This document shows, in pieces, positions 36,070 to 64,000 of a stretch of DNA of 64,000 nt (position 1 is its first letter; each line of letters starts with the position of its first letter). The notes under the pieces are model-generated. The model was not told where the DNA came from. It ran no database searches and saw only the letters and a program-made list of their open reading frames with translations. Source of the stretch: Rhynchopus sp. YZ270_cl-10. Taxonomy: Eukaryota. Where the stretch lies: assembly GCA_964035575.1 (NCBI GenBank), contig OZ037836.1, positions 1,550,001 through 1,614,000 of the forward strand. Reading direction: 5' to 3'. The position numbers and the translations under genes are program-made.

Positions 36070-36830
36070 ATGTACGTGCACTTCGAGGATTTCAGAGCGA
36101 ATCAGCGCACAGTCGAGGTGGGTGAAGATGACACAGTGGAGGGCTTGCGGCGGAAGGTGGCGACTGCAATGGGGTTGCCTGAAGACAGCTTTTGCATGAG
36201 TTTCGGAGGCGAAGCGATGGGAGAAGGAGCGGACATGACGCAGCTGAGTGCTGGTGACACAATCATCCTCACGAAGACGAAGACGCAGAAGTACGAAGCC
36301 ATTGCAAAGCTTCATGCGTTGGGTGAGAGAAACATCACTGCAGAGAGGTTGGTGGAGGTGGAGGATCCTGAGGTGGCATGTTTGCTTCTGCAGGCGGAGG
36401 TTGCGACTGTCATTCCGTATGGGTTCTTGAGAGAGGCATCGTTAACGCACCTTGATCTGAGTGCTGTGTCCTTTGTGACACAGATTGAAGACAACTTCCT
36501 GGCAGACTGCACCTCGTTGACAAGTATTGACCTATCTGGGTTGAGCAATGTGAAGGTCATTGGCAGTAGCTTTCTTGACGGCTGCGAAGCTTTAACCAAC
36601 CTGGATCTGACACCACTCAACAACGTTACGAGGATTGAGGGTTACTTTCTTTGCAACTGCAACTCTTTAACCACCCTGGATCTTACACCACTCATCAACG
36701 TGACGGTGATTGGCGAGAACTTTCTTGAGAGCTGCAACTCTTTAACCACCCTGGATCTTACACCACTCAACAACGCGACGGTGATTGGCAATGGCTTTCT
36801 TTACGACTGCAACTCGTTAACCACCCTGGA
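36070..36830 (+). pseudogene. Ubl-LRR gene 5, 5' part, interrupted by retrotransposon copy 1
   Basis: Ubl + LRRs ending ...CTCGTTAACCACCCTGGA; continues at 44590. Confidence 0.9.
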
Positions 36831-36960
36831 GGGATACACACAACGTACACAAAAAGAAAGAATATAAACAATGTTTTCGTACATGGTGTCGAAGTCACGT
36901 CCAGCCTCCACGCGGAGTATCCCGGGCAACGATCCGTCACACGGATCGGCCAAGTGGACG
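36831..36960 (+). ncRNA. HDV-like self-cleaving ribozyme (copy 1)
   Basis: P1 GGGATAC/GTATCCC, P2 CGTCCA/TGGACG, P3 GCC/GGA with L3 TCCACGC, P1.1 CC/GG, GCAAC, P4 GATCCGT/ACGGATC, J4/2 GGCCAAG; G1 is the first base of the element. Confidence 0.85.
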
Positions 36961-39735
36961 CCACACCCGCCGGCGCCTGTGTGCTGCAGGTCGTGGAACT
37001 GCTATTGCAGTGACGAGGTGACGGCGGCGGCGGAGCAGGCGCACTGGACTGAGGGGCTACGGCAGCCCGCCTACCCGGGGGCAGGCGGCATGAAGCGCAG
37101 TGCAGGGGAGGAGAGGAAGGATCCCGATGTCTTCATCGGAGTAGTGACGGGCGAGAAGGTGCGGGACACGACGGGGCTGTGTGCGCTGGCGCGTGATGCG
37201 ACGGAGGAGGAACCAGGAACGCACTGGGAAGTAACCCGCCGCCTGGCAAACATCACCAAGGCAGAAGCCGCGTACGAGGGCATCCTGCTCGGGCTTCAAG
37301 GGGTGGCCGACGGGTCGTACCCGAAGGGCACCCACGCGCGCGTGTGGGTCACGCACTTGGTGGTCTGGAGGCAGGTGGCTGAGGGGCACGCCTGCGACTC
37401 GTCGTTGCTGAAGCCGAGGCTGGAGAAGGTGAAGGCGCTGCTGGGCGAGTTGAAGAAGAGGGGGATAAGGGTATCGCTGCAGCACTGCGCGAAGGCGGGG
37501 AAGGGGATGAAGGAGGCAGAGAGCAACGCCCAGCTGGTTGCAGGAGGGGTGTACGCCGCAAGGGGATGCAGGACGGAGACGCTGGCAGCTGCCGTGCAGC
37601 CAGGTGTCAAGGGACACCTGGAAAGATGGGGGTTGCGATGGGAGGAATGTGGGGGCAAGGGGGACTGTCTGTTCCGGTCGGTGGCGTGGTCTGTGGAGCG
37701 GTCCCCGAATGGTCACGCAGGCTTCCGCAGGCTCGCAGTTGAGGTGATGAAGGAGCAGAAGGCACACTACAGCCCATTTGTGGACGAGGGGTGCATTGAT
37801 GCATACCTGGCAGGCATGGCGCAGCTGGGGACATGGGGGGACCATTTGTGTCTCCATGCGATCGCCAAGGTGATGAAGGTCCGCATTGTTGTGCTTGACG
37901 TTGGACCGGAGAACGCGCTACGGGCTACGCTGATCGACGGGCAGTCCGACGGGCAGCTGGCAGAAGGAACTCCGGAGAAGGCTAACCTCACCTTCACGGA
38001 GTCTGACGTAGTCCTGGGGTTCGAGGGGGTACACTACGGTGCTGTGGAATCGGCAGGGTTGAAGGTGGGGGAGGAACTTCTGTGCGCAGTGGGACAACCG
38101 CAACTGCACGTACCGGCTACAGCTGTGAAGGGGAAGAAGAAGGCGACGGCGGTGACCCAGAGCGCAGCGGAGGATGCACTGAACCTGGCGCCCCAGGGAT
38201 GGAAAATACCGGTGTGGGATGCAGTGCCCAGCAATGTGGAAGGGGTGACGCAGGTGGCGGCAGTTGCGTGGAAGGCGAGCGAACTTCTGCAGGGGTTACA
38301 GTTGCTGCACCAACTTCCGCAGATGGTGATTGTGTCCCGTTCGAAGTGTACGGGTGCAGCGCGCACGAAGAAGGCGAAGGTGGCGGTGAAGACGGAGCGG
38401 GGAGCAAAGGTGGAAGAAGTGTGGCTGTCGTCCATGACAACTAACTTGGACGACGTGGTGAAGCCGGTGGAGAGCACGTTCTCGAGCAAGCTGATTACGC
38501 TGATGGGCAGAACGATGTTGCTCCAGGGGGAGGGGCGCACAAAGGGAGAGCAACGCATGCGTCGGTGGTACGGGTTGCAGGGGGTGCGGTGTGGACGCGG
38601 CTTGGAGAGAGGAGGATGGATGGAGATGTCTGTGGACGTGACGGAGGACATGGTGTGCGCCATGCTGAGGAGAAGCGGACGGGAAGGGGTGTTTGTGCGG
38701 CACCTCTTCCAGGCAAAGGAGTACGGGGACTGTGGGTTGTTGTGGAAGGCGGAACCGCTGGAGTCTGCTCTGGCACGGCTGGACCTTGTTGAGGAGAACA
38801 TGGAGGATAGCGTGCGCGGACTCGCCGTAGGGGAAGGGGGCTACGCGGTGCGGGTGATGAAGGGGGACTTGGAGGCTGCGAAGAGGCTTCTTGTGCAGGA
38901 GGACGTCGTCGTGCAGGGACACAGGTACGAGATTGGGGGAATTCCGGCGAACACGTCGGTCCAGCTGTTGTGTGAGGGGCTGGTGAGGGAGGCGAGCTGG
39001 ACGGTGAAGGTGCTGTCGCGAGGGCACAAGTGGACGGTTACGTCGGATGTGCCGTGCCCGAGCACAGAAGGGGTGCTGGAGGTGGGTGGATTGGTGTTGA
39101 CGGTGTGTGCGGTGAAGGAAGGGCGTCGTGTGCAGAAGGTGGGTGCGAATCCGTGGGGTTTCCCTCTGGCGCAGTTCCCAGTACCGAGGCAAGGAGCAGC
39201 AGAGAGCGGCGCTGGCACGTGGGCGGCTAAGGCGAGGGGATACGCACCACCTGCAGCTCGACCCCACCCTGCAACAGGGGCACCGGCGGCTCCGGCACCT
39301 CCCGCAGCTTCATCAGCAGCGCAGGACGAGATAGAGATGATGAAGAAGGAGATGAAGGAATTGCGGGAGATGATGAAGGGCGTCATGGAGCAGCAGAAGG
39401 AGATGTTGGAGGCACAGAAGCGGATGATGGGACAGCCGCAGCAGTCGGCACCAGTCGCGCAACCGCCGCAGCCTCTCGACATGGAACAGCTCAGAGCAGA
39501 ATGTGCTGAGATGAAGGAGACGGTGCAGCAGTGCAAGGACCAGAACGTGCAGCTGGCAGCGGAGAGCAAGCGGCTCACGGAGGAGAACGAGGCGCTGAAG
39601 AAGGCAGCTCGCGAGGCCAAGGACAAGGCCAGGGATGCTCAAGATCGTGGCGGTGAGGAGAAGAAGAAAGATACGACGACGGACGAGAACAGCCGCCCCC
39701 GCGACACGGACAATAACCGAGAAAGGTCGTATTAA
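36871..39735 (+). CDS. Retrotransposon ORF1: degenerate RNase H-like domain, OTU-like cysteine protease, C-terminal coiled coil
   Basis: TKAEAAYEGILLGL...THLVVWRQV...LQH (RNase HI-like pattern, acidic residues replaced); GKGDCLFRSVA / WGDH / HYGAV (OTU boxes); true start may be ATG 37090. Confidence 0.8.
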   Translation: MFSYMVSKSRPASTRSIPGNDPSHGSAKWTPHPPAPVCCRSWNCYCSDEVTAAAEQAHWTEGLRQPAYPGAGGMKRSAGEERKDPDVFIGVVTGEKVRDTTGLCALARDATEEEPGTHWEVTRRLANITKAEAAYEGILLGLQGVADGSYPKGTHARVWVTHLVVWRQVAEGHACDSSLLKPRLEKVKALLGELKKRGIRVSLQHCAKAGKGMKEAESNAQLVAGGVYAARGCRTETLAAAVQPGVKGHLERWGLRWEECGGKGDCLFRSVAWSVERSPNGHAGFRRLAVEVMKEQKAHYSPFVDEGCIDAYLAGMAQLGTWGDHLCLHAIAKVMKVRIVVLDVGPENALRATLIDGQSDGQLAEGTPEKANLTFTESDVVLGFEGVHYGAVESAGLKVGEELLCAVGQPQLHVPATAVKGKKKATAVTQSAAEDALNLAPQGWKIPVWDAVPSNVEGVTQVAAVAWKASELLQGLQLLHQLPQMVIVSRSKCTGAARTKKAKVAVKTERGAKVEEVWLSSMTTNLDDVVKPVESTFSSKLITLMGRTMLLQGEGRTKGEQRMRRWYGLQGVRCGRGLERGGWMEMSVDVTEDMVCAMLRRSGREGVFVRHLFQAKEYGDCGLLWKAEPLESALARLDLVEENMEDSVRGLAVGEGGYAVRVMKGDLEAAKRLLVQEDVVVQGHRYEIGGIPANTSVQLLCEGLVREASWTVKVLSRGHKWTVTSDVPCPSTEGVLEVGGLVLTVCAVKEGRRVQKVGANPWGFPLAQFPVPRQGAAESGAGTWAAKARGYAPPAARPHPATGAPAAPAPPAASSAAQDEIEMMKKEMKELREMMKGVMEQQKEMLEAQKRMMGQPQQSAPVAQPPQPLDMEQLRAECAEMKETVQQCKDQNVQLAAESKRLTEENEALKKAAREAKDKARDAQDRGGEEKKKDTTTDENSRPRDTDNNRERSY

Positions 39736-39743
39736 TCACGACC

Positions 39744-42700
39744 GTGGGCCTTGCCCCACTAAAGATAGTGTGCAGCAATGTGACGGCGCTGCAGACAGGC
39801 GGGAGCTCTCTGCTGAAGGTTGCGGAGGATGCTCACGTTGTTCTGGTACAAGAGACAAAGTGCACCGTGACGACGCAGAAGCGCCTCTCCATCGAGTACC
39901 GCGAGCAGGGTTGGCAGGTGGTGTGGGGTAAGGAGTTGCCGGAATGGAGGTCGGCCGAAGAAGCGAAATCTGGTGGTGTTGCGATTCTGGTGCAAGAGGG
40001 AATACCTGTGCTCACGAGCCCGCCCTCCTCAACCTTGGAAAAGAACCTCTGGGACTCAACGCGATGGGTGAAGGCGAAGGTGGCGTACGGCAAAGGCAAC
40101 GAGTGGATCGACGTGACCTCCGTCTACGCGCCGTCGGCGGACCCGGAGGCTAGGGAGAAAATACTTGGCGAGGTGATGGAGGCTGCTGCAGAGCTTGGTG
40201 ATATTCCTGGGGTGATTGGTGGGGATTTCAACGCAGGTCCAGGGAAATCAGGTGTGCTGGCTGCTACACTGGACACAGGATGGTGGAAGGACACTGCCGA
40301 AGAGCACGCAAGGGTGCTTGGGACGACCCCGGACAACACCTACTTCTCGGTGAAAGACGGCAAGGAGATCCGCAAGAGGCTCGATTACGTTCTGCTGAAC
40401 CGAGCTGCGTGCACAGGGCTGTCGTCTGTGAAGGTTGTCCACGACTCTGGGCTCCCGCAGCACAGACCGGTAGAGATAGCGCTGGATGTAGGTGCGTACA
40501 GGCAGATCGTGCTCGCGTACACTCTGCCGAAGCAGTTCCCTTTGGACAAGTGTGGACAAGGCGTGAAGAATGCACAAAAGGCGTTTGCGAGCAAGGAGCT
40601 GCAGTGGGGGGCGCTTCAACACCCTCAGGATAGGTGGATACAGTGGAACAAGTGGGCAGAGGACTTCTTGCTGCAGGCGTGCGAAGGCGAGATTGAGGGC
40701 CCGACGAAGGCGTATTGCGGAAGAGGCAAAACGTTTGACCCGAAGCCGAAGCACCGGACTGCGAAGCAGAGCAAGGAAGGGGACGCTCTGACAGTGAGCC
40801 AGAGAAGGCTGACGAAGAACGTGGGCAGGCTGGAAGAATGTCGGCTGTGGTACGTGAGGAGCAACGGTGGTGTGCCGCCACATGACGTGTGCAATTGTTG
40901 GAGCAAGGCGCGGAAGGAACTGCGTGTTCTGCTGGACGACGACTCACTGCAACAGGATATGCCTAGCGAGGAGGCTTTGGTGGATCTGTGCAGAGCCGTG
41001 CGAGTGAAGGTGTCAACGCTTGCGGACCGAGTGAAGCGGAAGCGACTGGAGGACTGGCGGCAGCGCCTACGGGATGCATGGCACAATGCTCCCAAGGCGA
41101 TCTTCAAATACTGCAAGGACGAACAGTACAGGAAGATGACTGCCCTGAAGAACGAGGATGGGAAGTTCACCGCCAACGCTGAGGAGATGGACACCCTCCT
41201 GCATGAGGCGTGGATGCCGATTCTTCGCCGATATGCGGAAAAGCCAGAGCCCGACTGGGGTGCGTTTAGGGAGAAGTTTACAGAAGACATCGCAGGCAAG
41301 GGGCAAGCGATGCAGATGGACAGGCTGACGGGGAAGGAGTTGCAGCAAACTCTGGGGAGGATGAAGACACAAACTTCTGCTGGGGTGGAGGGTTGGCGCA
41401 TGGTAGAGCTGAAGGCGCTTCCTCTGGTGCTGCTCGACAGGCTGGCAGATGTGTTTGATGCGATTGAGTGTACGGGGGAGTGGCCGCCTTCTTTGATGAG
41501 AGCACTCATTGCGCTCATCCCCAAAGGGGAAGACGACACCCCGCTGAAGCAGCGACCTATCACGATCACTTCGTGTATCTACAGACTGTGGGCGGCAGCG
41601 AGGTTGCGAAGGCTGATAAAGTGGCAGGAAAGCTGGATTGGTGAGCAACAGCACGGCTTCAGAGCAGGACACAGCACTGCACACCTGTACTGGCATCTGT
41701 CGCTCAAGCTGGAGAAGGCGGTACTGTCGGGTGACGACACAGACCAGGTATGGGGCTTCACGATCGACTACGCCAAATGTTTCGATCGTGTACCTCATGA
41801 GATTGTGCTATCGCTGGCGGAGGAGTGGGGCGCGCACTGGCGTATTCTTGGACCACTGAGGGCTGCGTACACTGCCATGGAACGCCGCTTCAAGTTGGGA
41901 GACGTAGGTGTGGGAGGCACCTTTCGTACGACAAATGGTATCCTGCAAGGATGCCCACTTTCTGTCGTGCTGTTGAACGCGCTGATGGCGGTGTGGGGAT
42001 CTGCAGTGACGAGAAGGACCGGAGCAATCGCCATGGGGTACGCTGACGACGTGTATGCTGTGGCGAACACGGAAGCGGAGGTGCATGGTGCTGCGAGGGT
42101 GACGAAGGAGTTTATCACTGCTGCGGACATGGAGGTCAAGGCAGAGAAGTGCGTAGGGTTTACCTCGAAGGAGGGAACAAAGACGAAGTTTGGACTTGGC
42201 GACGGGCTCTTCCCCGACAAGAAGCAGTTCGGGGCGGTTGGAGCAGACATTTTGGCTGGAAAGGGGAACTTCGGGCCCATCGCGCGTGAGCGTGCGGTTA
42301 CTGCGCACCGTGTGTTTACGAGGGTTTCGAGTGTGCCTTTATCCTTCACTGAGAAGGCACTTATTGGCGCAAGGGGACCAATGATGGCAGCGTTGCATGG
42401 GTGCGAAGTGACAGACTTCTCAAAGCAGACCATAGAGACGCTGAGGCAAGGGGCAGCACTGGCAGTCTGGGGGCAGGGCAGGAAGCAGCGCACGCTGAAC
42501 ATTGTGTGGCATGTGTTATCTCCGGTTGGGATTGATGCGCCAGCGGAGATTGTGCAGAGGAGGATGGCGGCCTTTCTCCGACTGACAGAAGATGACGGCA
42601 TGCGGAGAGAAGCAGAAGACGTGTGGAGGCTGGCACATGACCGAAGAGCGGAGCGGGAGGTGAGGCGGCGTGACAGGGCTTCAGATCTGGCACGTCTCCG

Positions 42701-44510
42701 GCGCGAGAACCCTGGGGTTGCCAACCCAAGGGTTACTGAAGTGCACAAGAAGGGTGTGATAGAGTTGTTGTGGGACGACCTGGAGCGATACGGATGGCGG
42801 TGGAGCAGCTTCGACTTCTGGACCACACACATCGGGTTGAGGGTGCACGTTCGTCTGTGGGACAAGGGCAAATGGCTGCATGAGCTGAGAGAGGGCATCC
42901 GTGCACACGCGTACCGCCTGACAGTGACGACGAGGCCGTCGATGCAGGGCATTGAGGGAGGTGTGGATCGCCAGGCGACGAACGCAGTGTGGAAGGACCG
43001 CACGACCGACAGATACCTGGCGGGCGCGATACGCGGAGCCTTGTCGGGCTCTCAGTTGGTGGGGGTGCAGCTGCTGAGGAACAAGGAGGTGGAGACTTCG
43101 TTGTGCCGATACTGTGGTGAGGCGATAGAGGACCGGAGACACGCTTGGTGGTGGTGCCCGCAGTGGGACGAAATTCGTGGAGAGGACATCGGAAAACTCC
43201 GGGTTTTGCTCAAAGACGCACCCCCGTGCTTCTTGGACTTTGGCCTGGTGCCGACGATATTCTTGCAGGAGCTGAGTGTTGCGGAGAGAGAGCAGACGGT
43301 GCGTCGTGTGCAACTGATGCTGGTCAGCATCGCGCTGGCAAGGCAGAAGTACGACGTGGAACATGGGTTTTCGCAGAAGAAGAAGAAGCAAGCGGTGGTG
43401 GGCCAATCCCTTTTTCCTTGGGGCTGGAATCCTCAGGAGGGTGCAGTGCTTGAGAGCTACAACCCGCTGGAGAACGTACTGTGGGGGAGCAAGTACATGA
43501 AGAAGAGTCCACGCTGGACGGAAGACCACTTCTGGGCGCTGAAGGCATGGCTCGCTGCATTGCGTTGGCCTGATGGCACAACGCCCCCCATCACGCAGCT
43601 CGAGCTCATGCTGGACTTTGAGATCTTCTCGGGGTTGGACGTACCGGGTGAGACGGTGTTGAAGAGGGCCGAATCTTTTGGTGCCATGATGCGGACGGCG
43701 AAAACTATGGCGCATGGAAGGGACGTATGGAAAGGAGTGGAGAAGAGGGAGGTGCACCACTTACAGGAACTGGGTGCGGGGATCATGACGGGGTATTCTG
43801 TGCGACCTGTGCTGACGCATGCGGCGGGGGTTGAAGGATACCTGAAGGAGTTGCAGGAGAAGGCGACGTCGCGGAGAGCACTCTCCCGACAAAAGGAAAA
43901 GACGAAGGCGAGGTGGGGTGACGACGCGGATGTGGCTCATACTTCCACTCCGGAAGAACGCTCAGCAAAGAACGAACGCTGGAAGGAAGCGAAGGAAGAG
44001 CAGAAGCAGGCAGAGGAGGTGCGTAGTAGAGCTGCGATAGCTGCAGTTGCGGCAGAGCAGATTCGACGACAGGAGGCACGCAGGCGGCAGACACCGGCTG
44101 TGCGTGTGGACGTAAGGAGGAAGGTGGGGGCCATGCGGGTGTGTGACATACACACCAAGATGCGATGCGGGGACTGCGAGCACAACAACATCTCCATCAC
44201 GGCGTGTTGTGCGACGCACCATTGTGATGAGCTTATTTTGGGTGACTGTGTGGAGGCGCGTGAGGCGTGTGAGGTGCATAACTTCTCGATGTGCGGACAG
44301 TGTGCGGGTGCGGGGAACGTGTCGATGAAGCAGTGCTGTCAGAAGCACCACAACTGTGTGGCCCACGGGAGGGGTGCTTGCGGTGCATGTGTGCAGGCGG
44401 GACGGAAGAGGAAGAAGGACGGATTGCCGATGCTGGCGTCTCCTCAGGCCTGTTGCGGGAAAGGGCACCACGACACGTCCCAGGGGCGTCTCGGGTTTGC
44501 CCCGCGATAA
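39744..44510 (+). CDS. Retrotransposon ORF2: APE endonuclease, reverse transcriptase, CCHC finger, C-terminal Cys/His repeats
   Basis: CSNV, VQET, VYAP, GDFN, LDY, QH (APE); RPI, QHGF, DYAKCFD, QGCPLS, YADD (RT); CRYC-x8-H-x4-C; called start is GTG. Confidence 0.95.
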   Translation: MGLAPLKIVCSNVTALQTGGSSLLKVAEDAHVVLVQETKCTVTTQKRLSIEYREQGWQVVWGKELPEWRSAEEAKSGGVAILVQEGIPVLTSPPSSTLEKNLWDSTRWVKAKVAYGKGNEWIDVTSVYAPSADPEAREKILGEVMEAAAELGDIPGVIGGDFNAGPGKSGVLAATLDTGWWKDTAEEHARVLGTTPDNTYFSVKDGKEIRKRLDYVLLNRAACTGLSSVKVVHDSGLPQHRPVEIALDVGAYRQIVLAYTLPKQFPLDKCGQGVKNAQKAFASKELQWGALQHPQDRWIQWNKWAEDFLLQACEGEIEGPTKAYCGRGKTFDPKPKHRTAKQSKEGDALTVSQRRLTKNVGRLEECRLWYVRSNGGVPPHDVCNCWSKARKELRVLLDDDSLQQDMPSEEALVDLCRAVRVKVSTLADRVKRKRLEDWRQRLRDAWHNAPKAIFKYCKDEQYRKMTALKNEDGKFTANAEEMDTLLHEAWMPILRRYAEKPEPDWGAFREKFTEDIAGKGQAMQMDRLTGKELQQTLGRMKTQTSAGVEGWRMVELKALPLVLLDRLADVFDAIECTGEWPPSLMRALIALIPKGEDDTPLKQRPITITSCIYRLWAAARLRRLIKWQESWIGEQQHGFRAGHSTAHLYWHLSLKLEKAVLSGDDTDQVWGFTIDYAKCFDRVPHEIVLSLAEEWGAHWRILGPLRAAYTAMERRFKLGDVGVGGTFRTTNGILQGCPLSVVLLNALMAVWGSAVTRRTGAIAMGYADDVYAVANTEAEVHGAARVTKEFITAADMEVKAEKCVGFTSKEGTKTKFGLGDGLFPDKKQFGAVGADILAGKGNFGPIARERAVTAHRVFTRVSSVPLSFTEKALIGARGPMMAALHGCEVTDFSKQTIETLRQGAALAVWGQGRKQRTLNIVWHVLSPVGIDAPAEIVQRRMAAFLRLTEDDGMRREAEDVWRLAHDRRAEREVRRRDRASDLARLRRENPGVANPRVTEVHKKGVIELLWDDLERYGWRWSSFDFWTTHIGLRVHVRLWDKGKWLHELREGIRAHAYRLTVTTRPSMQGIEGGVDRQATNAVWKDRTTDRYLAGAIRGALSGSQLVGVQLLRNKEVETSLCRYCGEAIEDRRHAWWWCPQWDEIRGEDIGKLRVLLKDAPPCFLDFGLVPTIFLQELSVAEREQTVRRVQLMLVSIALARQKYDVEHGFSQKKKKQAVVGQSLFPWGWNPQEGAVLESYNPLENVLWGSKYMKKSPRWTEDHFWALKAWLAALRWPDGTTPPITQLELMLDFEIFSGLDVPGETVLKRAESFGAMMRTAKTMAHGRDVWKGVEKREVHHLQELGAGIMTGYSVRPVLTHAAGVEGYLKELQEKATSRRALSRQKEKTKARWGDDADVAHTSTPEERSAKNERWKEAKEEQKQAEEVRSRAAIAAVAAEQIRRQEARRRQTPAVRVDVRRKVGAMRVCDIHTKMRCGDCEHNNISITACCATHHCDELILGDCVEAREACEVHNFSMCGQCAGAGNVSMKQCCQKHHNCVAHGRGACGACVQAGRKRKKDGLPMLASPQACCGKGHHDTSQGRLGFAPR

Positions 44511-44521
44511 CGAAGGTGGTC

Positions 44522-44576
44522 ACGTGGCGCCTTTCTCACCTCTCAGTTCATCTGAGAAGGTGGGGATGGGTCACGT
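44522..44576 (+). other. 3'-UTR stem-loop of the retrotransposon (also 58062-58116)
   Basis: ACGTGGC/GTCACGT outer stem and CACCTCTCAG/CTGAGA(A)GGTG inner stem, followed by CAACAAGTTTAA(T) with no poly(A). Confidence 0.7.
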
Positions 44577-44589
44577 CAACAAGTTTAAT

Positions 44590-49215: not shown

Positions 49216-49459
49216 GAGTTACTTACTGTGTGGTCCTCGGACACAGCCTCCGTGGCGCTGCTTCAACAGCGACGTCATTGGGGGTGTTCCTCATACACAG
49301 CACAATAACTATGTTTTTGAGCATTTGTTCAGGGTTGAAACCCGGATGCGTCCAATGAAAATCACGTCAGTAGAAAAGTTCGAGAATGTAGGTTTTATTA
49401 TTTTTGTCCACACCCCACCACCACACACAGAGATCAGAACACAAAACAACAGCAAACAA

Positions 49460-53275: not shown

Positions 53276-53283
53276 TCACGACC

Positions 53284-56200: not shown

Positions 56201-58050
56201 TGAGGCGGCGTGACAGGGCTTCAGATCTGGCACGTCTCCGGCGCGAGAACCCTGGGGTTGCCAACCCAAGGGTTACTGAAGTGCACAAGAAGGGTGTGAT
56301 AGAGTTGTTGTGGGACGACCTGGAGCGATACGGATGGCGGTGGAGCAGCTTCGACTTCTGGACCACACACATCGGGTTGAGGGTGCACGTTCGTCTGTGG
56401 GACAAGGGCAAATGGCTGCATGAGCTGAGAGAGGGCATCCGTGCACACGCGTACCGCCTGACAGTGACGACGAGGCCGTCGATGCAGGGCATTGAGGGAG
56501 GTGTGGATCGCCAGGCGACGAACGCAGTGTGGAAGGACCGCACGACCGACAGATACCTGGCGGGCGCGATACGCGGAGCCTTGTCGGGCTCTCAGTTGGT
56601 GGGGGTGCAGCTGCTGAGGAACAAGGAGGTGGAGACTTCGTTGTGCCGATACTGTGGTGAGGCGATAGAGGACCGGAGACACGCTTGGTGGTGGTGCCCG
56701 CAGTGGGACGAAATTCGTGGAGAGGACATCGGAAAACTCCGGGTTTTGCTCAAAGACGCACCCCCGTGCTTCTTGGACTTTGGCCTGGTGCCGACGATAT
56801 TCTTGCAGGAGCTGAGTGTTGCGGAGAGAGAGCAGACGGTGCGTCGTGTGCAACTGATGCTGGTCAGCATCGCGCTGGCAAGGCAGAAGTACGACGTGGA
56901 ACATGGGTTTTCGCAGAAGAAGAAGAAGCAAGCGGTGGTGGGCCAATCCCTTTTTCCTTGGGGCTGGAATCCTCAGGAGGGTGCAGTGCTTGAGAGCTAC
57001 AACCCGCTGGAGAACGTACTGTGGGGGAGCAAGTACATGAAGAAGAGTCCACGCTGGACGGAAGACCACTTCTGGGCGCTGAAGGCATGGCTCGCTGCAT
57101 TGCGTTGGCCTGATGGCACAACGCCCCCCATCACGCAGCTCGAGCTCATGCTGGACTTTGAGATCTTCTCGGGGTTGGACGTACCGGGTGAGACGGTGTT
57201 GAAGAGGGCCGAATCTTTTGGTGCCATGATGCGGACGGCGAAAACGATGGCGCGTGGAAGGGACGTATGGAAAGGAGTGGAGAAGAGGGAGGTGCACCAC
57301 TTACAGGAACTGGGTGCGGGGATCATGACGGGGTATTCTGTGCGACCTGTGCTGACGCATGCGGCGGGGGTTGAAGGATACCTGAAGGAGTTGCAGGAGA
57401 AGGCGACGTCGCGGAGAGCACTCTCCCGACAAAAGGAAAAGACGAAGGCGAGGTGGGGTGACGACGCGGATGTGGCTCATACTTCCACTCCGGAAGAACG
57501 CTCAGCAAAGAACGAACGCTGGAAGGAAGCGAAGGAAGAGCAGAAGCAGGCAGAGGAGGTGCGTAGTAGAGCTGCGATAGCTGCAGTTGCGGCAGAGCAG
57601 ATTCGACGACAGGAGGCACGCAGGCGGCAGACACCGGCTGTGCGTGTGGACGTAAGGAGGAAGGTGGGGGCCATGCGGGTGTGTGACATACACACCAAGA
57701 TGCGATGCGGGGACTGCGAGCACAACAACATCTCCATCACGGCGTGTTGTGCGACGCACCATTGTGATGAGCTTATTTTGGGTGACTGTGTGGAGGCGCG
57801 TGAGGCGTGTGAGGTGCATAACTTCTCGATGTGCGGACAGTGTGCGGGTGCGGGGAACGTGTCGATGAAGCAGTGCTGTCAGAAGCACCACAACTGTGTG
57901 GCCCACGGGAGGGGTGCTTGCGGTGCATGTGTGCAGGCGGGACGGAAGAGGAAGAAGGACGGATTGCCGATGCTGGCGTCTCCTCAGGCCTGTTGCGGGA
58001 AAGGGCACCACGACACGTCCCAGGGGCGTCTCGGGTTTGCCCCGCGATAA
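53284..58050 (+). CDS. Retrotransposon ORF2 APE-RT (copy 2)
   Basis: 1588 aa; visible difference from copy 1: KTMARG vs KTMAHG. Confidence 0.95.
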   Translation: MGLAPLKIVCSNVTALQTGGSSLLKVAEDAHVVLVQETKCTVTTQKRLSIEYREQGWQVVWGKELPEWRSAEEAKSGGVAILVQEGIPVLTSPPSSTLEKNLWDSTRWVKAKVAYGKGNEWIDVTSVYAPSADPEAREKILGEVMEAAAELGDIPGVIGGDFNAGPGKSGVLAATLDTGWWKDTAEEHARVLGTTPDNTYFSVKDGKEIRKRLDYVLLNRAACTGLSSVKVVHDSGLPQHRPVEIALDVGAYRQIVLAYTLPKQFPLDKCGQGVKNAQKAFASKELQWGALQHPQDRWIQWNKWAEDFLLQACEGEIEGPTKAYCGRGKTFDPKPKHRTAKQSKEGDALTVSQRRLTKNVGRLEECRLWYVRSNGGVPPHDVCNCWSKARKELRVLLDDDSLQQDMPSEEALVDLCRAVRVKVSTLADRVKRKRLEDWRQRLRDAWHNAPKAIFKYCKDEQYRKMTALKNEDGKFTANAEEMDTLLHEAWMPILRRYAEKPEPDWGAFREKFTEDIAGKGQAMQMDRLTGKELQQTLGRMKTQTSAGVEGWRMVELKALPLVLLDRLADVFDAIECTGEWPPSLMRALIALIPKGEDDTPLKQRPITITSCIYRLWAAARLRRLIKWQESWIGEQQHGFRAGHSTAHLYWHLSLKLEKAVLSGDDTDQVWGFTIDYAKCFDRVPHEIVLSLAEEWGAHWRILGPLRAAYTAMERRFKLGDVGVGGTFRTTNGILQGCPLSVVLLNALMAVWGSAVTRRTGAIAMGYADDVYAVANTEAEVHGAARVTKEFITAADMEVKAEKCVGFTSKEGTKTKFGLGDGLFPDKKQFGAVGADILAGKGNFGPIARERAVTAHRVFTRVSSVPLSFTEKALIGARGPMMAALHGCEVTDFSKQTIETLRQGAALAVWGQGRKQRTLNIVWHVLSPVGIDAPAEIVQRRMAAFLRLTEDDGMRREAEDVWRLAHDRRAEREVRRRDRASDLARLRRENPGVANPRVTEVHKKGVIELLWDDLERYGWRWSSFDFWTTHIGLRVHVRLWDKGKWLHELREGIRAHAYRLTVTTRPSMQGIEGGVDRQATNAVWKDRTTDRYLAGAIRGALSGSQLVGVQLLRNKEVETSLCRYCGEAIEDRRHAWWWCPQWDEIRGEDIGKLRVLLKDAPPCFLDFGLVPTIFLQELSVAEREQTVRRVQLMLVSIALARQKYDVEHGFSQKKKKQAVVGQSLFPWGWNPQEGAVLESYNPLENVLWGSKYMKKSPRWTEDHFWALKAWLAALRWPDGTTPPITQLELMLDFEIFSGLDVPGETVLKRAESFGAMMRTAKTMARGRDVWKGVEKREVHHLQELGAGIMTGYSVRPVLTHAAGVEGYLKELQEKATSRRALSRQKEKTKARWGDDADVAHTSTPEERSAKNERWKEAKEEQKQAEEVRSRAAIAAVAAEQIRRQEARRRQTPAVRVDVRRKVGAMRVCDIHTKMRCGDCEHNNISITACCATHHCDELILGDCVEAREACEVHNFSMCGQCAGAGNVSMKQCCQKHHNCVAHGRGACGACVQAGRKRKKDGLPMLASPQACCGKGHHDTSQGRLGFAPR

Positions 58051-58128
58051 CGAAGGTGGTCACGTGGCGCCTTTCTCACCTCTCAGTTCATCTGAGAAGG
58101 TGGGGATGGGTCACGTCAACAAGTTTAA

Positions 58129-58371: not shown

Positions 58372-58501
58372 GGGATACACACAACGTACACAAAAAGAAA
58401 GAATATAAACAATGTTTTCGTACATGGTGTCGAAGTCACGTCCAGCCTCCACGCGGAGTATCCCGGGCAACGATCCGTCACACGGATCGGCCAAGTGGAC
58501 G
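58372..58501 (+). ncRNA. HDV-like ribozyme (copy 3)
   Basis: Same sequence as 36831-36960. Confidence 0.85.
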
Positions 58502-61276
58502 CCACACCCGCCGGCGCCTGTGTGCTGCAGGTCGTGGAACTGCTATTGCAGTGACGAGGTGACGGCGGCGGCGGAGCAGGCGCACTGGACTGAGGGGCTA
58601 CGGCAGCCCGCCTACCCGGGGGCAGGCGGCATGAAGCGCAGTGCAGGGGAGGAGAGGAAGGATCCCGATGTCTTCATCGGAGTAGTGACGGGCGAGAAGG
58701 TGCGGGACACGACGGGGCTGTGTGCGCTGGCGCGTGATGCGACGGAGGAGGAACCAGGAACGCACTGGGAAGTAACCCGCCGCCTGGCAAACATCACCAA
58801 GGCAGAAGCCGCGTACGAGGGCATCCTGCTCGGGCTTCAAGGGGTGGCCGACGGGTCGTACCCGAAGGGCACCCACGCGCGCGTGTGGGTCACGCACTTG
58901 GTGGTCTGGAGGCAGGTGGCTGAGGGGCACGCCTGCGACTCGTCGTTGCTGAAGCCGAGGCTGGAGAAGGTGAAGGCGCTGCTGGGCGAGTTGAAGAAGA
59001 GGGGGATAAGGGTATCGCTGCAGCACTGCGCGAAGGCGGGGAAGGGGATGAAGGAGGCAGAGAGCAACGCCCAGCTGGTTGCAGGAGGGGTGTACGCCGC
59101 AAGGGGATGCAGGACGGAGACGCTGGCAGCTGCCGTGCAGCCAGGTGTCAAGGGACACCTGGAAAGATGGGGGTTGCGATGGGAGGAATGTGGGGGCAAG
59201 GGGGACTGTCTGTTCCGGTCGGTGGCGTGGTCTGTGGAGCGGTCCCCGAATGGTCACGCAGGCTTCCGCAGGCTCGCAGTTGAGGTGATGAAGGAGCAGA
59301 AGGCACACTACAGCCCATTTGTGGACGAGGGGTGCATTGATGCATACCTGGCAGGCATGGCGCAGCTGGGGACATGGGGGGACCATTTGTGTCTCCATGC
59401 GATCGCCAAGGTGATGAAGGTCCGCATTGTTGTGCTTGACGTTGGACCGGAGAACGCGCTACGGGCTACGCTGATCGACGGGCAGTCCGACGGGCAGCTG
59501 GCAGAAGGAACTCCGGAGAAGGCTAACCTCACCTTCACGGAGTCTGACGTAGTCCTGGGGTTCGAGGGGGTACACTACGGTGCTGTGGAATCGGCAGGGT
59601 TGAAGGTGGGGGAGGAACTTCTGTGCGCAGTGGGACAACCGCAACTGCACGTACCGGCTACAGCTGTGAAGGGGAAGAAGAAGGCGACGGCGGTGACCCA
59701 GAGCGCAGCGGAGGATGCACTGAACCTGGCGCCCCAGGGATGGAAAATACCGGTGTGGGATGCAGTGCCCAGCAATGTGGAAGGGGTGACGCAGGTGGCG
59801 GCAGTTGCGTGGAAGGCGAGCGAACTTCTGCAGGGGTTACAGTTGCTGCACCAACTTCCGCAGATGGTGATTGTGTCCCGTTCGAAGTGTACGGGTGCAG
59901 CGCGCACGAAGAAGGCGAAGGTGGCGGTGAAGACGGAGCGGGGAGCAAAGGTGGAAGAAGTGTGGCTGTCGTCCATGACAACTAACTTGGACGACGTGGT
60001 GAAGCCGGTGGAGAGCACGTTCTCGAGCAAGCTGATTACGCTGATGGGCAGAACGATGTTGCTCCAGGGGGAGGGGCGCACAAAGGGAGAGCAACGCATG
60101 CGTCGGTGGTACGGGTTGCAGGGGGTGCGGTGTGGACGCGGCTTGGAGAGAGGAGGATGGATGGAGATGTCTGTGGACGTGACGGAGGACATGGTGTGCG
60201 CCATGCTGAGGAGAAGCGGACGGGAAGGGGTGTTTGTGCGGCACCTCTTCCAGGCAAAGGAGTACGGGGACTGTGGGTTGTTGTGGAAGGCGGAACCGCT
60301 GGAGTCTGCTCTGGCACGGCTGGACCTTGTTGAGGAGAACATGGAGGATAGCGTGCGCGGACTCGCCGTAGGGGAAGGGGGCTACGCGGTGCGGGTGATG
60401 AAGGGGGACTTGGAGGCTGCGAAGAGGCTTCTTGTGCAGGAGGACGTCGTCGTGCAGGGACACAGGTACGAGATTGGGGGAATTCCGGCGAACACGTCGG
60501 TCCAGCTGTTGTGTGAGGGGCTGGTGAGGGAGGCGAGCTGGACGGTGAAGGTGCTGTCGCGAGGGCACAAGTGGACGGTTACGTCGGATGTGCCGTGCCC
60601 GAGCACAGAAGGGGTGCTGGAGGTGGGTGGATTGGTGTTGACGGTGTGTGCGGTGAAGGAAGGGCGTCGTGTGCAGAAGGTGGGTGCGAATCCGTGGGGT
60701 TTCCCTCTGGCGCAGTTCCCAGTACCGAGGCAAGGAGCAGCAGAGAGCGGCGCTGGCACGTGGGCGGCTAAGGCGAGGGGATACGCACCACCTGCAGCTC
60801 GACCCCACCCTGCAACAGGGGCACCGGCGGCTCCGGCACCTCCCGCAGCTTCATCAGCAGCGCAGGACGAGATAGAGATGATGAAGAAGGAGATGAAGGA
60901 ATTGCGGGAGATGATGAAGGGCGTCATGGAGCAGCAGAAGGAGATGTTGGAGGCACAGAAGCGGATGATGGGACAGCCGCAGCAGTCGGCACCAGTCGCG
61001 CAACCGCCGCAGCCTCTCGACATGGAACAGCTCAGAGCAGAATGTGCTGAGATGAAGGAGACGGTGCAGCAGTGCAAGGACCAGAACGTGCAGCTGGCAG
61101 CGGAGAGCAAGCGGCTCACGGAGGAGAACGAGGCGCTGAAGAAGGCAGCTCGCGAGGCCAAGGACAAGGCCAGGGATGCTCAAGATCGTGGCGGTGAGGA
61201 GAAGAAGAAAGATACGACGACGGACGAGAACAGCCGCCCCCGCGACACGGACAATAACCGAGAAAGGTCGTATTAA
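58412..61276 (+). CDS. Retrotransposon ORF1 (copy 3)
   Basis: 954 aa, same translation as copy 1. Confidence 0.8.
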   Translation: MFSYMVSKSRPASTRSIPGNDPSHGSAKWTPHPPAPVCCRSWNCYCSDEVTAAAEQAHWTEGLRQPAYPGAGGMKRSAGEERKDPDVFIGVVTGEKVRDTTGLCALARDATEEEPGTHWEVTRRLANITKAEAAYEGILLGLQGVADGSYPKGTHARVWVTHLVVWRQVAEGHACDSSLLKPRLEKVKALLGELKKRGIRVSLQHCAKAGKGMKEAESNAQLVAGGVYAARGCRTETLAAAVQPGVKGHLERWGLRWEECGGKGDCLFRSVAWSVERSPNGHAGFRRLAVEVMKEQKAHYSPFVDEGCIDAYLAGMAQLGTWGDHLCLHAIAKVMKVRIVVLDVGPENALRATLIDGQSDGQLAEGTPEKANLTFTESDVVLGFEGVHYGAVESAGLKVGEELLCAVGQPQLHVPATAVKGKKKATAVTQSAAEDALNLAPQGWKIPVWDAVPSNVEGVTQVAAVAWKASELLQGLQLLHQLPQMVIVSRSKCTGAARTKKAKVAVKTERGAKVEEVWLSSMTTNLDDVVKPVESTFSSKLITLMGRTMLLQGEGRTKGEQRMRRWYGLQGVRCGRGLERGGWMEMSVDVTEDMVCAMLRRSGREGVFVRHLFQAKEYGDCGLLWKAEPLESALARLDLVEENMEDSVRGLAVGEGGYAVRVMKGDLEAAKRLLVQEDVVVQGHRYEIGGIPANTSVQLLCEGLVREASWTVKVLSRGHKWTVTSDVPCPSTEGVLEVGGLVLTVCAVKEGRRVQKVGANPWGFPLAQFPVPRQGAAESGAGTWAAKARGYAPPAARPHPATGAPAAPAPPAASSAAQDEIEMMKKEMKELREMMKGVMEQQKEMLEAQKRMMGQPQQSAPVAQPPQPLDMEQLRAECAEMKETVQQCKDQNVQLAAESKRLTEENEALKKAAREAKDKARDAQDRGGEEKKKDTTTDENSRPRDTDNNRERSY

Positions 61277-61284
61277 TCACGACC

Positions 61285-64000
61285 GTGGGCCTTGCCCCAC
61301 TAAAGATAGTGTGCAGCAATGTGACGGCGCTGCAGACAGGCGGGAGCTCTCTGCTGAAGGTTGCGGAGGATGCTCACGTTGTTCTGGTACAAGAGACAAA
61401 GTGCACCGTGACGACGCAGAAGCGCCTCTCCATCGAGTACCGCGAGCAGGGTTGGCAGGTGGTGTGGGGTAAGGAGTTGCCGGAATGGAGGTCGGCCGAA
61501 GAAGCGAAATCTGGTGGTGTTGCGATTCTGGTGCAAGAGGGAATACCTGTGCTCACGAGCCCGCCCTCCTCAACCTTGGAAAAGAACCTCTGGGACTCAA
61601 CGCGATGGGTGAAGGCGAAGGTGGCGTACGGCAAAGGCAACGAGTGGATCGACGTGACCTCCGTCTACGCGCCGTCGGCGGACCCGGAGGCTAGGGAGAA
61701 AATACTTGGCGAGGTGATGGAGGCTGCTGCAGAGCTTGGTGATATTCCTGGGGTGATTGGTGGGGATTTCAACGCAGGTCCAGGGAAATCAGGTGTGCTG
61801 GCTGCTACACTGGACACAGGATGGTGGAAGGACACTGCCGAAGAGCACGCAAGGGTGCTTGGGACGACCCCGGACAACACCTACTTCTCGGTGAAAGACG
61901 GCAAGGAGATCCGCAAGAGGCTCGATTACGTTCTGCTGAACCGAGCTGCGTGCACAGGGCTGTCGTCTGTGAAGGTTGTCCACGACTCTGGGCTCCCGCA
62001 GCACAGACCGGTAGAGATAGCGCTGGATGTAGGTGCGTACAGGCAGATCGTGCTCGCGTACACTCTGCCGAAGCAGTTCCCTTTGGACAAGTGTGGACAA
62101 GGCGTGAAGAATGCACAAAAGGCGTTTGCGAGCAAGGAGCTGCAGTGGGGGGCGCTTCAACACCCTCAGGATAGGTGGATACAGTGGAACAAGTGGGCAG
62201 AGGACTTCTTGCTGCAGGCGTGCGAAGGCGAGATTGAGGGCCCGACGAAGGCGTATTGCGGAAGAGGCAAAACGTTTGACCCGAAGCCGAAGCACCGGAC
62301 TGCGAAGCAGAGCAAGGAAGGGGACGCTCTGACAGTGAGCCAGAGAAGGCTGACGAAGAACGTGGGCAGGCTGGAAGAATGTCGGCTGTGGTACGTGAGG
62401 AGCAACGGTGGTGTGCCGCCACATGACGTGTGCAATTGTTGGAGCAAGGCGCGGAAGGAACTGCGTGTTCTGCTGGACGACGACTCACTGCAACAGGATA
62501 TGCCTAGCGAGGAGGCTTTGGTGGATCTGTGCAGAGCCGTGCGAGTGAAGGTGTCAACGCTTGCGGACCGAGTGAAGCGGAAGCGACTGGAGGACTGGCG
62601 GCAGCGCCTACGGGATGCATGGCACAATGCTCCCAAGGCGATCTTCAAATACTGCAAGGACGAACAGTACAGGAAGATGACTGCCCTGAAGAACGAGGAT
62701 GGGAAGTTCACCGCCAACGCTGAGGAGATGGACACCCTCCTGCATGAGGCGTGGATGCCGATTCTTCGCCGATATGCGGAAAAGCCAGAGCCCGACTGGG
62801 GTGCGTTTAGGGAGAAGTTTACAGAAGACATCGCAGGCAAGGGGCAAGCGATGCAGATGGACAGGCTGACGGGGAAGGAGTTGCAGCAAACTCTGGGGAG
62901 GATGAAGACACAAACTTCTGCTGGGGTGGAGGGTTGGCGCATGGTAGAGCTGAAGGCGCTTCCTCTGGTGCTGCTCGACAGGCTGGCAGATGTGTTTGAT
63001 GCGATTGAGTGTACGGGGGAGTGGCCGCCTTCTTTGATGAGAGCACTCATTGCGCTCATCCCCAAAGGGGAAGACGACACCCCGCTGAAGCAGCGACCTA
63101 TCACGATCACTTCGTGTATCTACAGACTGTGGGCGGCAGCGAGGTTGCGAAGGCTGATAAAGTGGCAGGAAAGCTGGATTGGTGAGCAACAGCACGGCTT
63201 CAGAGCAGGACACAGCACTGCACACCTGTACTGGCATCTGTCGCTCAAGCTGGAGAAGGCGGTACTGTCGGGTGACGACACAGACCAGGTATGGGGCTTC
63301 ACGATCGACTACGCCAAATGTTTCGATCGTGTACCTCATGAGATTGTGCTATCGCTGGCGGAGGAGTGGGGCGCGCACTGGCGTATTCTTGGACCACTGA
63401 GGGCTGCGTACACTGCCATGGAACGCCGCTTCAAGTTGGGAGACGTAGGTGTGGGAGGCACCTTTCGTACGACAAATGGTATCCTGCAAGGATGCCCACT
63501 TTCTGTCGTGCTGTTGAACGCGCTGATGGCGGTGTGGGGATCTGCAGTGACGAGAAGGACCGGAGCAATCGCCATGGGGTACGCTGACGACGTGTATGCT
63601 GTGGCGAACACGGAAGCGGAGGTGCATGGTGCTGCGAGGGTGACGAAGGAGTTTATCACTGCTGCGGACATGGAGGTCAAGGCAGAGAAGTGCGTAGGGT
63701 TTACCTCGAAGGAGGGAACAAAGACGAAGTTTGGACTTGGCGACGGGCTCTTCCCCGACAAGAAGCAGTTCGGGGCGGTTGGAGCAGACATTTTGGCTGG
63801 AAAGGGGAACTTCGGGCCCATCGCGCGTGAGCGTGCGGTTACTGCGCACCGTGTGTTTACGAGGGTTTCGAGTGTGCCTTTATCCTTCACTGAGAAGGCA
63901 CTTATTGGCGCAAGGGGACCAATGATGGCAGCGTTGCATGGGTGCGAAGTGACAGACTTCTCAAAGCAGACCATAGAGACGCTGAGGCAAGGGGCAGCAC
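61285..64000 (+). CDS. Retrotransposon ORF2 APE-RT (copy 3, truncated by the window edge)
   Basis: Same sequence as 39744 onward, includes YADD. Confidence 0.9.
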   Translation, partial: MGLAPLKIVCSNVTALQTGGSSLLKVAEDAHVVLVQETKCTVTTQKRLSIEYREQGWQVVWGKELPEWRSAEEAKSGGVAILVQEGIPVLTSPPSSTLEKNLWDSTRWVKAKVAYGKGNEWIDVTSVYAPSADPEAREKILGEVMEAAAELGDIPGVIGGDFNAGPGKSGVLAATLDTGWWKDTAEEHARVLGTTPDNTYFSVKDGKEIRKRLDYVLLNRAACTGLSSVKVVHDSGLPQHRPVEIALDVGAYRQIVLAYTLPKQFPLDKCGQGVKNAQKAFASKELQWGALQHPQDRWIQWNKWAEDFLLQACEGEIEGPTKAYCGRGKTFDPKPKHRTAKQSKEGDALTVSQRRLTKNVGRLEECRLWYVRSNGGVPPHDVCNCWSKARKELRVLLDDDSLQQDMPSEEALVDLCRAVRVKVSTLADRVKRKRLEDWRQRLRDAWHNAPKAIFKYCKDEQYRKMTALKNEDGKFTANAEEMDTLLHEAWMPILRRYAEKPEPDWGAFREKFTEDIAGKGQAMQMDRLTGKELQQTLGRMKTQTSAGVEGWRMVELKALPLVLLDRLADVFDAIECTGEWPPSLMRALIALIPKGEDDTPLKQRPITITSCIYRLWAAARLRRLIKWQESWIGEQQHGFRAGHSTAHLYWHLSLKLEKAVLSGDDTDQVWGFTIDYAKCFDRVPHEIVLSLAEEWGAHWRILGPLRAAYTAMERRFKLGDVGVGGTFRTTNGILQGCPLSVVLLNALMAVWGSAVTRRTGAIAMGYADDVYAVANTEAEVHGAARVTKEFITAADMEVKAEKCVGFTSKEGTKTKFGLGDGLFPDKKQFGAVGADILAGKGNFGPIARERAVTAHRVFTRVSSVPLSFTEKALIGARGPMMAALHGCEVTDFSKQTIETLRQGAA

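Follow-up and report, generated by a model that had tools for sequence, protein, structure and literature searches.

The window, that is, the whole stretch of 64,000 nucleotides that was analysed (Rhynchopus sp. YZ270_cl-10, contig OZ037836.1), carries genes of a ubiquitin-like/BspA-type LRR family that comprises several hundred genes, many of them with several LRR units. Two of the genes are split by copies of a LINE. The features are as follows.

19304-20056, 24644-25765, 27962-29017 and 30469-33093 (span 19304..33093), plus strand: four unbroken paralogues
36070..47850, plus strand: host gene A (ubiquitin-like and BspA-type LRR), split by LINE copy 1 and the 2.4-kb insert
36813..36830, plus strand: target site and left TSD of copy 1 (right TSD 44590-44607)
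36831..44589, plus strand: LINE copy 1, full length, 7,758 bp and one extra T at the 3' junction
36831..36959, plus strand: predicted HDV-like ribozyme of copy 1, 129 nt (copies 2 and 3, 50371-50499 and 58372-58500)
36871..39735, plus strand: ORF1, 954 aa, in frame with the host LRR ORF, 3 nt past its premature stop
39717..44510, plus strand: ORF2, 1,597 codons stop to stop, in the -1 frame relative to ORF1
44511..44589, plus strand: short 3' UTR, ending CAAGTTTAA, without poly(A)
45363..47749, plus strand: non-coding insert of 2.39 kb at the same bond as the LINE, ending CAAGTATAAG
48863..49224, minus strand: inverted internal LINE fragment (element nt 5576-5934), 362 bp, 95% identity
49460..58371, plus strand: host gene B (ubiquitin-like and BspA-type LRR), split by copies 2 and 3, the rest lying beyond the window
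50371..58128, plus strand: LINE copy 2, full length (TSD 50353-50370 and 58129-58146)
58372..64000, plus strand: LINE copy 3, 5' end intact, continuing past the window end (target 58354-58371)

Gene A also has a frameshift near 45300, and its C-terminal remnant starts at 47750. The first base of the element is at 36831, 50371 and 58372, preceded each time by ACCACCCTGGA, so that the cut is ACCACCCTGGA^T, and in 3 of 3 copies this bond falls within the Asp codon of TTLD in the 75-bp BspA-type LRR unit. Copies 1 and 2 differ at 2 of 7,758 positions, copy 3 matches both without difference over the 5,629 bp inside the window (identity among the copies is at least 99.97%), and all three lie on the strand of the host gene. 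The earlier note, made from the letters alone, had claimed just this, namely, three near-identical and co-oriented copies with intact 5' ends at one LRR bond, each in a different target variant, and the upstream 18-mers are indeed as it gave them. The variant of copy 1 is repeated at its right TSD with one extra T before it, and that of copy 2 is repeated at 58129-58146, where, owing to an AA microhomology, the TSD measures 18-20 bp; the variant-matched 18-bp TSDs claimed for these two copies are thus present. After its TSD, copy 2 is separated from copy 3 by 225 bp, which is the spacing of three LRR units that had been noted. The 57 bp 5' of the three TSDs have 84-86% mutual identity compared with 74±8% for 210 pairs of LRR units, and so these flanks differ from each other, albeit slightly above the LRR-unit background. 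The contention that the insertions were independent holds in view of their own TSD variants, the differing flanks, and the further genes found elsewhere in the assembly.

The exact target 11-mer occurs 17 times on the plus strand and 0 times on the minus strand of the 42,854 non-element bases, and the chance of three random insertions at it is about 5e-12, which is a rough, post-hoc figure. Every LRR unit of the four unbroken paralogues has at least 4 mismatches to the target 19-mer, and none of these approximately 38 units carries an insertion, compared with 3 of the 22 units that have 3 or fewer mismatches (Fisher p about 0.035, worked by hand on LRR units that are not independent).

Two features go beyond the earlier note. 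The inverted fragment at 48863-49224 lies outside any LRR and no TSD was seen around it. The 2.39-kb insert at the LINE's bond has an 18-bp TSD with one mismatch (45345-45362 and 47750-47767).

The element is an APE-type non-LTR retrotransposon (LINE) because it has an N-terminal APE followed by a non-LTR RT, and its copies have TSDs without terminal repeats, none being found between the element ends by BLAST of the element against the window. Both ORFs are intact, ORF1 bearing OTU and ORF2 bearing APE and RT. The OTU cysteine-protease domain of ORF1 (about 37615-38043) has its Cys and His (Pfam E=1.7e-12; OTUD3 E=1.9e-7), and the C-terminus contains a coiled-coil-like region. As a lead only, the stretch at about 37126-37563 is a likely degenerate RNase H-like domain; folding the N-terminal domain of ORF1 from its single sequence gave a pLDDT of 48 and 0 PDB matches. 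In ORF2, the APE endonuclease (about 39756-40484) has all its catalytic motifs, with no AUG upstream of them in the ORF, and the RT (41517-42170) has YADD and is followed by a CxxC...H...C motif and a Cys/His-rich tail. RNase H was not detected in ORF2, including the part after the RT. Pfam assigned Exo_endo_phos and RVT_1 to ORF2, and its top PDB matches were LINE-1 ORF2p and R2. A stable hairpin (z = -3.8) is predicted at 44480-44610, which includes the 3' UTR. The anatomy of the element and its junctions point to retrotransposition by TPRT, and the element is a young, autonomous, two-ORF APE-type LINE that was recently active, its host likely being a diplonemid, a marine protist.

The 5' end of the element is predicted to be a self-cleaving HDV-like ribozyme. 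The predicted nested double pseudoknot is complete (P1, P1.1, P2, P3 and P4, with the catalytic C in J4/2), the outer P3 pair being a G-A mismatch. In copy 1, P1 is 36831-36837/36917-36923, P2 is 36899-36903/36955-36959, P3/L3 is 36904-36916, the predicted catalytic C is at 36950, and the long, 61-nt J1/2 holds the ORF1 ATG. The top three Rfam matches for the 5' end were all HDV-type families, with scores of 16-21 bits that are under the gathering values of 37-50, the 61-nt J1/2 being outside the aligned models. A ribozyme descriptor, composed after the sequence was seen, matches the element and had 0 matches in 2 Mb of random sequence. In the MFE fold P1 pairing starts at base 1, and the predicted cleavage site coincides with base 1 in 3 of 3 copies; this would explain both the precise 5' ends and the co-orientation. 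In P0062, which represents a diverged subfamily, the ribozyme region is conserved and the sequence 3' of it has diverged. It is likely, going by this model, that the LINE cuts its own RNA out of the host-gene transcript by means of the predicted ribozyme. Release of the same kind by HDV-like ribozymes is documented for R2 and L1Tc in PMC4035085.

The site is also used elsewhere. Five further proteins of the family (P0045, P0095, P0100, P0141 and P0163; 62-86% mutual identity where compared) end in the read-through peptide of the element 5' end after x[TN]LE, and the peptide begins at the same residue in all five, whose genes fall into four contig-length classes. In P0062, the diverged element is inserted 1 nt upstream of the usual bond. 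A protein search with words from the last 40 residues gave 8 candidates, with LRR_5 in all 7 of those listed. This protein-tail test detects in-frame, co-oriented insertions in ORFs of 173-613 aa only and is blind to intergenic copies, and one search for further cases started from an LRR query, which biases detection to LRR genes. The 5' flank was checked for only about 9 of roughly 20-33 copies; ORF1 is represented by 14 proteins from 19 contig records, and the ORF2 cluster has 33 members. Contigs of public runs contain four more LRR-type 3' junction variants, two LRR-like 5' flanks (X3) and a 5'-truncated copy fused to LRR-like sequence (X2). They also contain three distinct 3' flanks unlike LRR DNA (X1/X3) and a 95-nt 3' stub with a non-LRR upstream flank (X3), both judged by eye. 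Thus, the sequence specificity that had been claimed stands in so far as one bond is reused, but it is not absolute: it is a strong preference, the target tolerates substitutions, and some copies are elsewhere.

The junctions, the TSDs, the ORFs and the repeated use of the site are observed, and we consider it probable that the LINE has used one bond of the 75-bp LRR units for repeated insertion, with its own endonuclease likely recognising the sequence during TPRT. An unlikely alternative, yet the most serious one, is that a LINE with a loose preference for a short motif inserts widely and that copies in LRR genes dominate because they are tolerated and because transcription, and with it continued activity, is limited to copies co-oriented in expressed LRR genes. 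The three non-LRR 3' flanks, the non-LRR 3' stub and the inverted fragment are in its favor, as is the fact that more than half of the copies are unchecked and that detection is biased to LRR genes. Tolerance and transcription would account for the gene family and the orientation but not for the single bond, one of 75 per unit, that is used at 8 sites, and among the 3' junction forms at least 6 are of LRR type and 3 are not.

A second alternative is that one or a few ancestral insertions reached other LRR units through gene conversion or unequal crossing-over. The near identity of the copies, the tandem clustering of the gene family, and 5' flanks slightly more alike than average units speak for it. 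However, the target variant on either side of a copy is specific to that copy, a pattern that donor-derived conversion would not produce, the 3' junctions of the copies show single-base differences, the flanking repeats of nine junction proteins differ right up to the site, and the same site is used by the diverged subfamily and by the unrelated insert. This explanation is therefore largely refuted, and we give it little weight. Least probable of all is that the copies arose as an artefact when a repeat-rich region was assembled. Collapse or polishing would give identical copies, and copies 2 and 3 do show 100% identity over 5,629 bp; moreover, a whole copy is spanned by none of the contigs listed. 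Against this, a 4,681-bp contig of run X7 crosses the 5' junction of copy 1 with 0 differences, contigs of runs X2 and X3 cover the 3' junction of copy 2 and the spacer (the assembly may itself derive from one of these separate runs), and P0065, in which the gene-A junction is recorded a second time, has 3 differing residues. Since several junctions recur in independent sequencing runs, the copies are not an artefact of assembly.

Repeated insertion by the LINE's own machinery could proceed as follows. A copy that is co-oriented in a host LRR gene would be transcribed along with that gene, and the HDV-like ribozyme would cleave just 5' of base 1 to give a full-length RNA with a precise 5' end. 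ORF2p, with its endonuclease as the putative carrier of specificity, would then nick the bottom strand 17-20 nt upstream of the GGA^T bond, where reverse transcription would begin on the tail-less 3' end, aided by 1-2 nt of A microhomology. A top-strand cut at GGA^T would produce the 18-bp TSD. Every insertion would truncate one host gene, and the paralogues would remain as renewable empty targets, which keep being supplied because there are several hundred of them, many multi-unit. A wider reading, which we offer tentatively and hold to be rather doubtful as a whole, is that base-precise specificity for a tandem repeat in protein-coding DNA arose independently in an APE LINE lineage outside Tx1/R1, with polycistronic host transcription and the HDV ribozyme replacing a promoter of its own, and that this lineage mobilised the sequence-unrelated 2.4-kb passenger into the same bond. 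An arms race would follow, in which LRR subfamilies escape by recoding the target and insertions and recombination between copies reshuffle the LRR arrays.

The closest relatives of the element, judged by sequence comparison, are unclassified diplonemid APE-RT LINEs. ORF2 is 47% identical to P0004 (Rhynchopus euleeides cluster P0004/P0025), and 62% over the RT region; this cluster has the same Cys/His tail and is the sister in a quick RT tree (SH-aLRT 98) built from 75 of 94 sequences (at least 300 aligned residues) that are database neighbours only, without named clade references. Other diplonemid relatives are in records of Diplonema papillatum, D. japonicum and Flectonema neradi, and OTU and RVT_3 domains occur in other relatives. 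A metagenome scan with ORF2 alone gave no loci, and one with an alignment gave 19 distant loci, of which 0 had LRR or ORF1 similarity or a match to the ribozyme descriptor; these are silent on the targets of relatives because most are too short to show flanks. The D. papillatum genome paper defers TE classification (PMC10161547).

The element has an N-terminal APE and so differs from the RLE-type CRE/SLACS, R2 and NeSL. The target of R2 is 28S rDNA, and its only ORF encodes a restriction-like endonuclease at the C-terminus. The present LINE is like R2 in its predicted ribozyme release and tail-less 3' end and differs in its two ORFs, APE and LRR target. In R2, according to PMC13708176, an HDV-like ribozyme releases the element from the host co-transcript and tail-less priming is aided by target homology. 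With the Tx1/R1 clades (Keno and others) our element shares an APE endonuclease and sharp specificity for a multicopy sequence, but their targets are RNA genes, transposons, microsatellites or telomeric repeats, and here it is BspA-type LRR coding DNA. To our knowledge, the sequence-specific LINEs reported so far target RNA genes, simple repeats, telomeres or other transposons.

Among euglenozoans, ingi/RIME of Trypanosoma brucei and L1Tc/NARTc of T. cruzi are APE-RT LINEs with a 5' HDV-like ribozyme (PMC4035085), and PMC7563717 describes a hot spot inside the coding sequence of the RHS multigene family, where it gives rise to truncated pseudogenes. In L1Tc a single ORF encodes the AP, RT, RNase H and chaperone domains, and the element has the 77-nt Pr77 ribozyme/promoter and poly(A) (PMC5814959). 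The element is like these in its 5' HDV-like ribozyme, predicted here, its coding-region hot spot in a multigene family, and the pairing of autonomous and non-autonomous partners, for which the 2.4-kb insert is a candidate. Unlike them, it has two ORFs, OTU in ORF1, no RNase H found after the RT, no poly(A), an 18-bp TSD, and a 129-nt predicted ribozyme with the ORF1 start in J1/2. The RHS systems have one hot spot per gene, whereas here the target is repeated many times per gene. The suggestion that the target is unusual and perhaps undescribed survives in part: no precedent for a LINE targeting an intragenic tandem coding repeat was found in the papers searched, but hot spots in protein families were already known, as with ingi/RIME in RHS and TcTREZO in MASP pseudogenes. 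An internal repeat of a protein family can act as a renewable LINE target that offers several sites in each gene, and few site-specific LINEs are known to have made a comparable choice of landing site. Being young and intact, with exact 5' ends and a known target, the APE element is a model for the evolution of APE specificity, with a possible use in RNA-templated insertion tools, and it lets one test whether a transposon shapes a large LRR gene family in an abundant, little-studied protist group.

We considered whether the ATG at the end of the element could rescue the LRR half that follows it and rejected this; the ATG is in frame in copy 2 but not in copy 1, and it is also out of frame, by hand reading, in two junction variants from public contigs. 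A similarity of the 2.4-kb insert to the LINE was rejected, there being no BLAST similarity and a 3'-end alignment no better than shuffles (56 of 500), and the searches gave no ribozyme match in the insert. The insert is a candidate non-autonomous passenger, and its sharing of the LINE's bond is new, as is a predicted ribozyme that starts at base 1. TcTREZO of T. cruzi is site-specific and lies mostly in pseudogenes of MASP, a protein multigene family (PMC5814959). Being a composite of genomic sequences and not an autonomous LINE, TcTREZO is a closer analogue of the 2.4-kb insert than of the LINE.

The three near-identical LINE copies start at 36831, 50371 and 58372, each directly after ...ACCACCCTGGA and within the codon for Asp in the TTLD motif of the LRR, which bears out the shared insertion bond proposed in the earlier note. 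Copies 1 and 2 are 7,758 bp each and differ at 2 positions, and copy 3 matches both over the 5,629 bp present in the window. As had also been proposed, copies 1 and 2 are each followed by an exact repeat of their upstream 18-bp target variant, with one additional T at the 3' junction of copy 1 and an AA microhomology at that of copy 2, and the spacing of copies 2 and 3 in gene B is 225 bp, that is, three LRR units. Neither poly(A) nor terminal repeats were found when the element ends and a self-comparison were examined in the window. By hand count in the window, the LINE is present in 3 of 22 LRR units with at most three mismatches from the target 19-mer and in none of about 43 units with four or more, all units of four intact paralogues included (hand Fisher p ~0.035, the LRR units not being independent).

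The target genes are intronless and of the ubiquitin-like plus BspA-type LRR kind. The window contains six such genes with LRRs and one fragment, and the family has 452 matches in the protein database at E<=1e-20. Among the 120 matches listed of these 452, 105 have the normal C-terminal cap, 6 terminate in an element read-through peptide immediately after x[TN]LE, and P0062 alone enters a diverged element subfamily, 1 nt upstream of the usual bond; contigs from the sequencing runs likewise branch near element nt 123. Gene B itself accounts for one of the six read-through proteins, and P0065, which differs from gene A at 3 residues only, for another; the other four are new sites. P0163 came from a further search using the last 40 residues, in which each of the 7 candidates listed, out of 8, has LRR_5. 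Exact-bond sites thus total 8, three in the window and five elsewhere, the latter spread over contigs of four length classes, with one more at -1; the protein-tail test behind the sites outside the window detects in-frame insertions only, in ORFs of 173-613 aa. Because the targets also include TNLE, ITTLE and, in the junction protein P0095, a unit from a more distant subfamily, the recognised core is probably not as long as the TSD. The element family comprises 14 ORF1 proteins on 19 contig records (one unrelated 38-aa member was dropped) and 33 ORF2 members, which leaves over half of the copies without a checked flank. Most intact host family members have as C-terminus a basic motif, which we take to resemble a bipartite nuclear localisation signal and which insertions remove.

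Parts of the window occur, as contigs throughout, in 11 public runs from seven studies, and one of these runs may be the source of the assembly. In run X7 a 4,681-bp contig spans the copy-1 5' junction with 0 differences, and in runs X2 and X3 contigs cover the spacer and the copy-2 3' junction, with 23 bases on the element side, under the 31-base bridging rule. Such junction contigs are at odds with the copies being an assembly artefact, which we find barely credible. Other LRR-type 3' junction forms were seen, with 1- and 2-base differences at 44589 and 44592 among the matches listed, and two at 58128. At the 5' end, two X3 contigs have LRR-like sequence upstream, and X2 contains a 5'-truncated copy, cut off at element nt 114 and joined to LRR-like sequence. 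Spread of the copies by conversion is very improbable because it conflicts with both the site-matched TSDs and these heterogeneous junctions. The earlier claim that the insertions are independent is upheld in the window and at further genes.

The site specificity claimed earlier stands as a strong preference rather than an absolute rule. It is supported by the 8 exact-bond sites, but three distinct long 3' flanks, one of them present in X1 as well as X3, are by eye unlike LRR DNA, as is the sequence upstream of a 95-nt 3' stub of the element, and these flanks speak against strict specificity. Unique flanks, which give longer contigs on assembly, are probably over-represented in the run-contig table. 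A loose motif preference combined with selection is unlikely, although less so than conversion, and leaves the use of one bond in 75 unexplained. The best reading, which we consider likely, is sequence-directed TPRT with a relaxed margin, in which the target would be chosen by sequence, co-transcription with the host gene would supply the element RNA, and a predicted ribozyme would release it from the host transcript.

The first 129 nt of the element are predicted to fold as an HDV-like double pseudoknot. The best three Rfam matches in 36700-37200, HDV_ribozyme, HDV-F-prausnitzii and drz-agam-1, fall on the same bases and score 16-21 bits, under their gathering scores, and the MFE structure pairs element bases 1-7 with 87-93 (z=-2.7). 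A descriptor composed after the sequence had been seen matched the window three times, on each occasion from base 1 of a copy onwards, and 2 Mb of random sequence yielded no match. In P0062 the peptide from the predicted ribozyme region is almost unchanged while the following sequence diverges. The RNAs of R2 and L1Tc are described as released from host co-transcripts by HDV-like ribozymes cleaving 5' of the first base (PMC4035085), and diplonemid genes are described as likely co-transcribed in long groups (PMC10161547). Ribozyme release from a host co-transcript would explain why the 5' ends are uniform and the copies co-oriented. The interrupted host ORF and ORF1 share a reading frame, and the ORF1 ATG lies 3 nt past the premature host stop (TAA ACA ATG, 36865-36873), inside J1/2 of the predicted ribozyme, a possible stop-restart arrangement.

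ORF1 encodes 954 aa with an OTU domain (Pfam E=1.7e-12; OTUD3 E=1.9e-7). Its N-terminal region, with an Atlas score of 0.89 and RNase H clan matches, gave E=0.03 against a profile built on two relatives and has altered acidic catalytic positions, and its low-confidence predicted fold (pLDDT 48) gave no PDB match; resemblance to RNase H is only a lead. In ORF2 the motifs of both the APE and the RT domain are intact, and a CxxC...H...C motif and a Cys/His-rich tail are present as well. At 39717-39760, where ORF2 runs in the -1 frame relative to ORF1, the two share 19 nt. No AUG precedes the endonuclease motifs and the first is codon 154, so ORF2 could be translated only through a frameshift or from a non-AUG start. 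The closest relatives are a Rhynchopus euleeides cluster (47% identity), to which the element is sister in a quick tree of 75 RT regions, and then Diplonema papillatum elements (32-34%); 5 of 10 RT neighbours looked up have names, every one diplonemid. A diplonemid is accordingly the likely host. OTU and RVT_3 each occur in 2 of 28 relatives, and since an OTU-bearing Symbiodinium ORF2p is also mentioned in PMC13405545, OTU is not unique to this element.

The element works like ingi and R2 but differs from ingi in having two ORFs, no RNase H after the RT and no poly(A), and so falls outside ingi. The earlier suggestion that such a target is unusual and may be undescribed holds in so far as a literature search of titles and abstract openings found no LINE targeting LRR or other intragenic coding repeats; it is weakened by protein-family precedents, described for the ingi/RIME hot spot in trypanosome RHS genes (PMC7563717) and for TcTREZO in MASP pseudogenes (PMC5814959). 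The repeat supplement to the D. papillatum genome may also be relevant to whether the element has been described before.

Further features of the window are as follows.
1229-5665: WD40 beta-propeller ORF, 1,478 codons, including a low-complexity repeat region
13884-16916, minus strand: intact-looking MULE/Mutator transposase, 1,010 codons, with SWIM finger
21829-23733 and 26093-26959: among the LRR genes, ORFs that have an FHA domain and match Tpt1/KptA (RNA 2'-phosphotransferase) weakly
45363-47749: non-coding insert of 2,387 bp in gene A, at the identical bond, 18-bp TSD with one mismatch
48863-49224, minus strand: older, inverted internal LINE fragment without TSD, upstream of gene B

The 3' end of the insert (CAAGTATAAG) is similar to that of the LINE (CAAGTTTAA), and BLAST and 3'-end alignment found no further similarity between the two. 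Only one insert copy was seen at the target bond, and we regard it as a candidate non-autonomous passenger. Within the insert are two 31-bp inverted repeats (46535-46565 and 47500-47530) and also some short direct repeats, which may mark a nested element. Among the contigs listed from X1 and X2, some link its first ~33 bases to the N-terminal region of other genes in the family.
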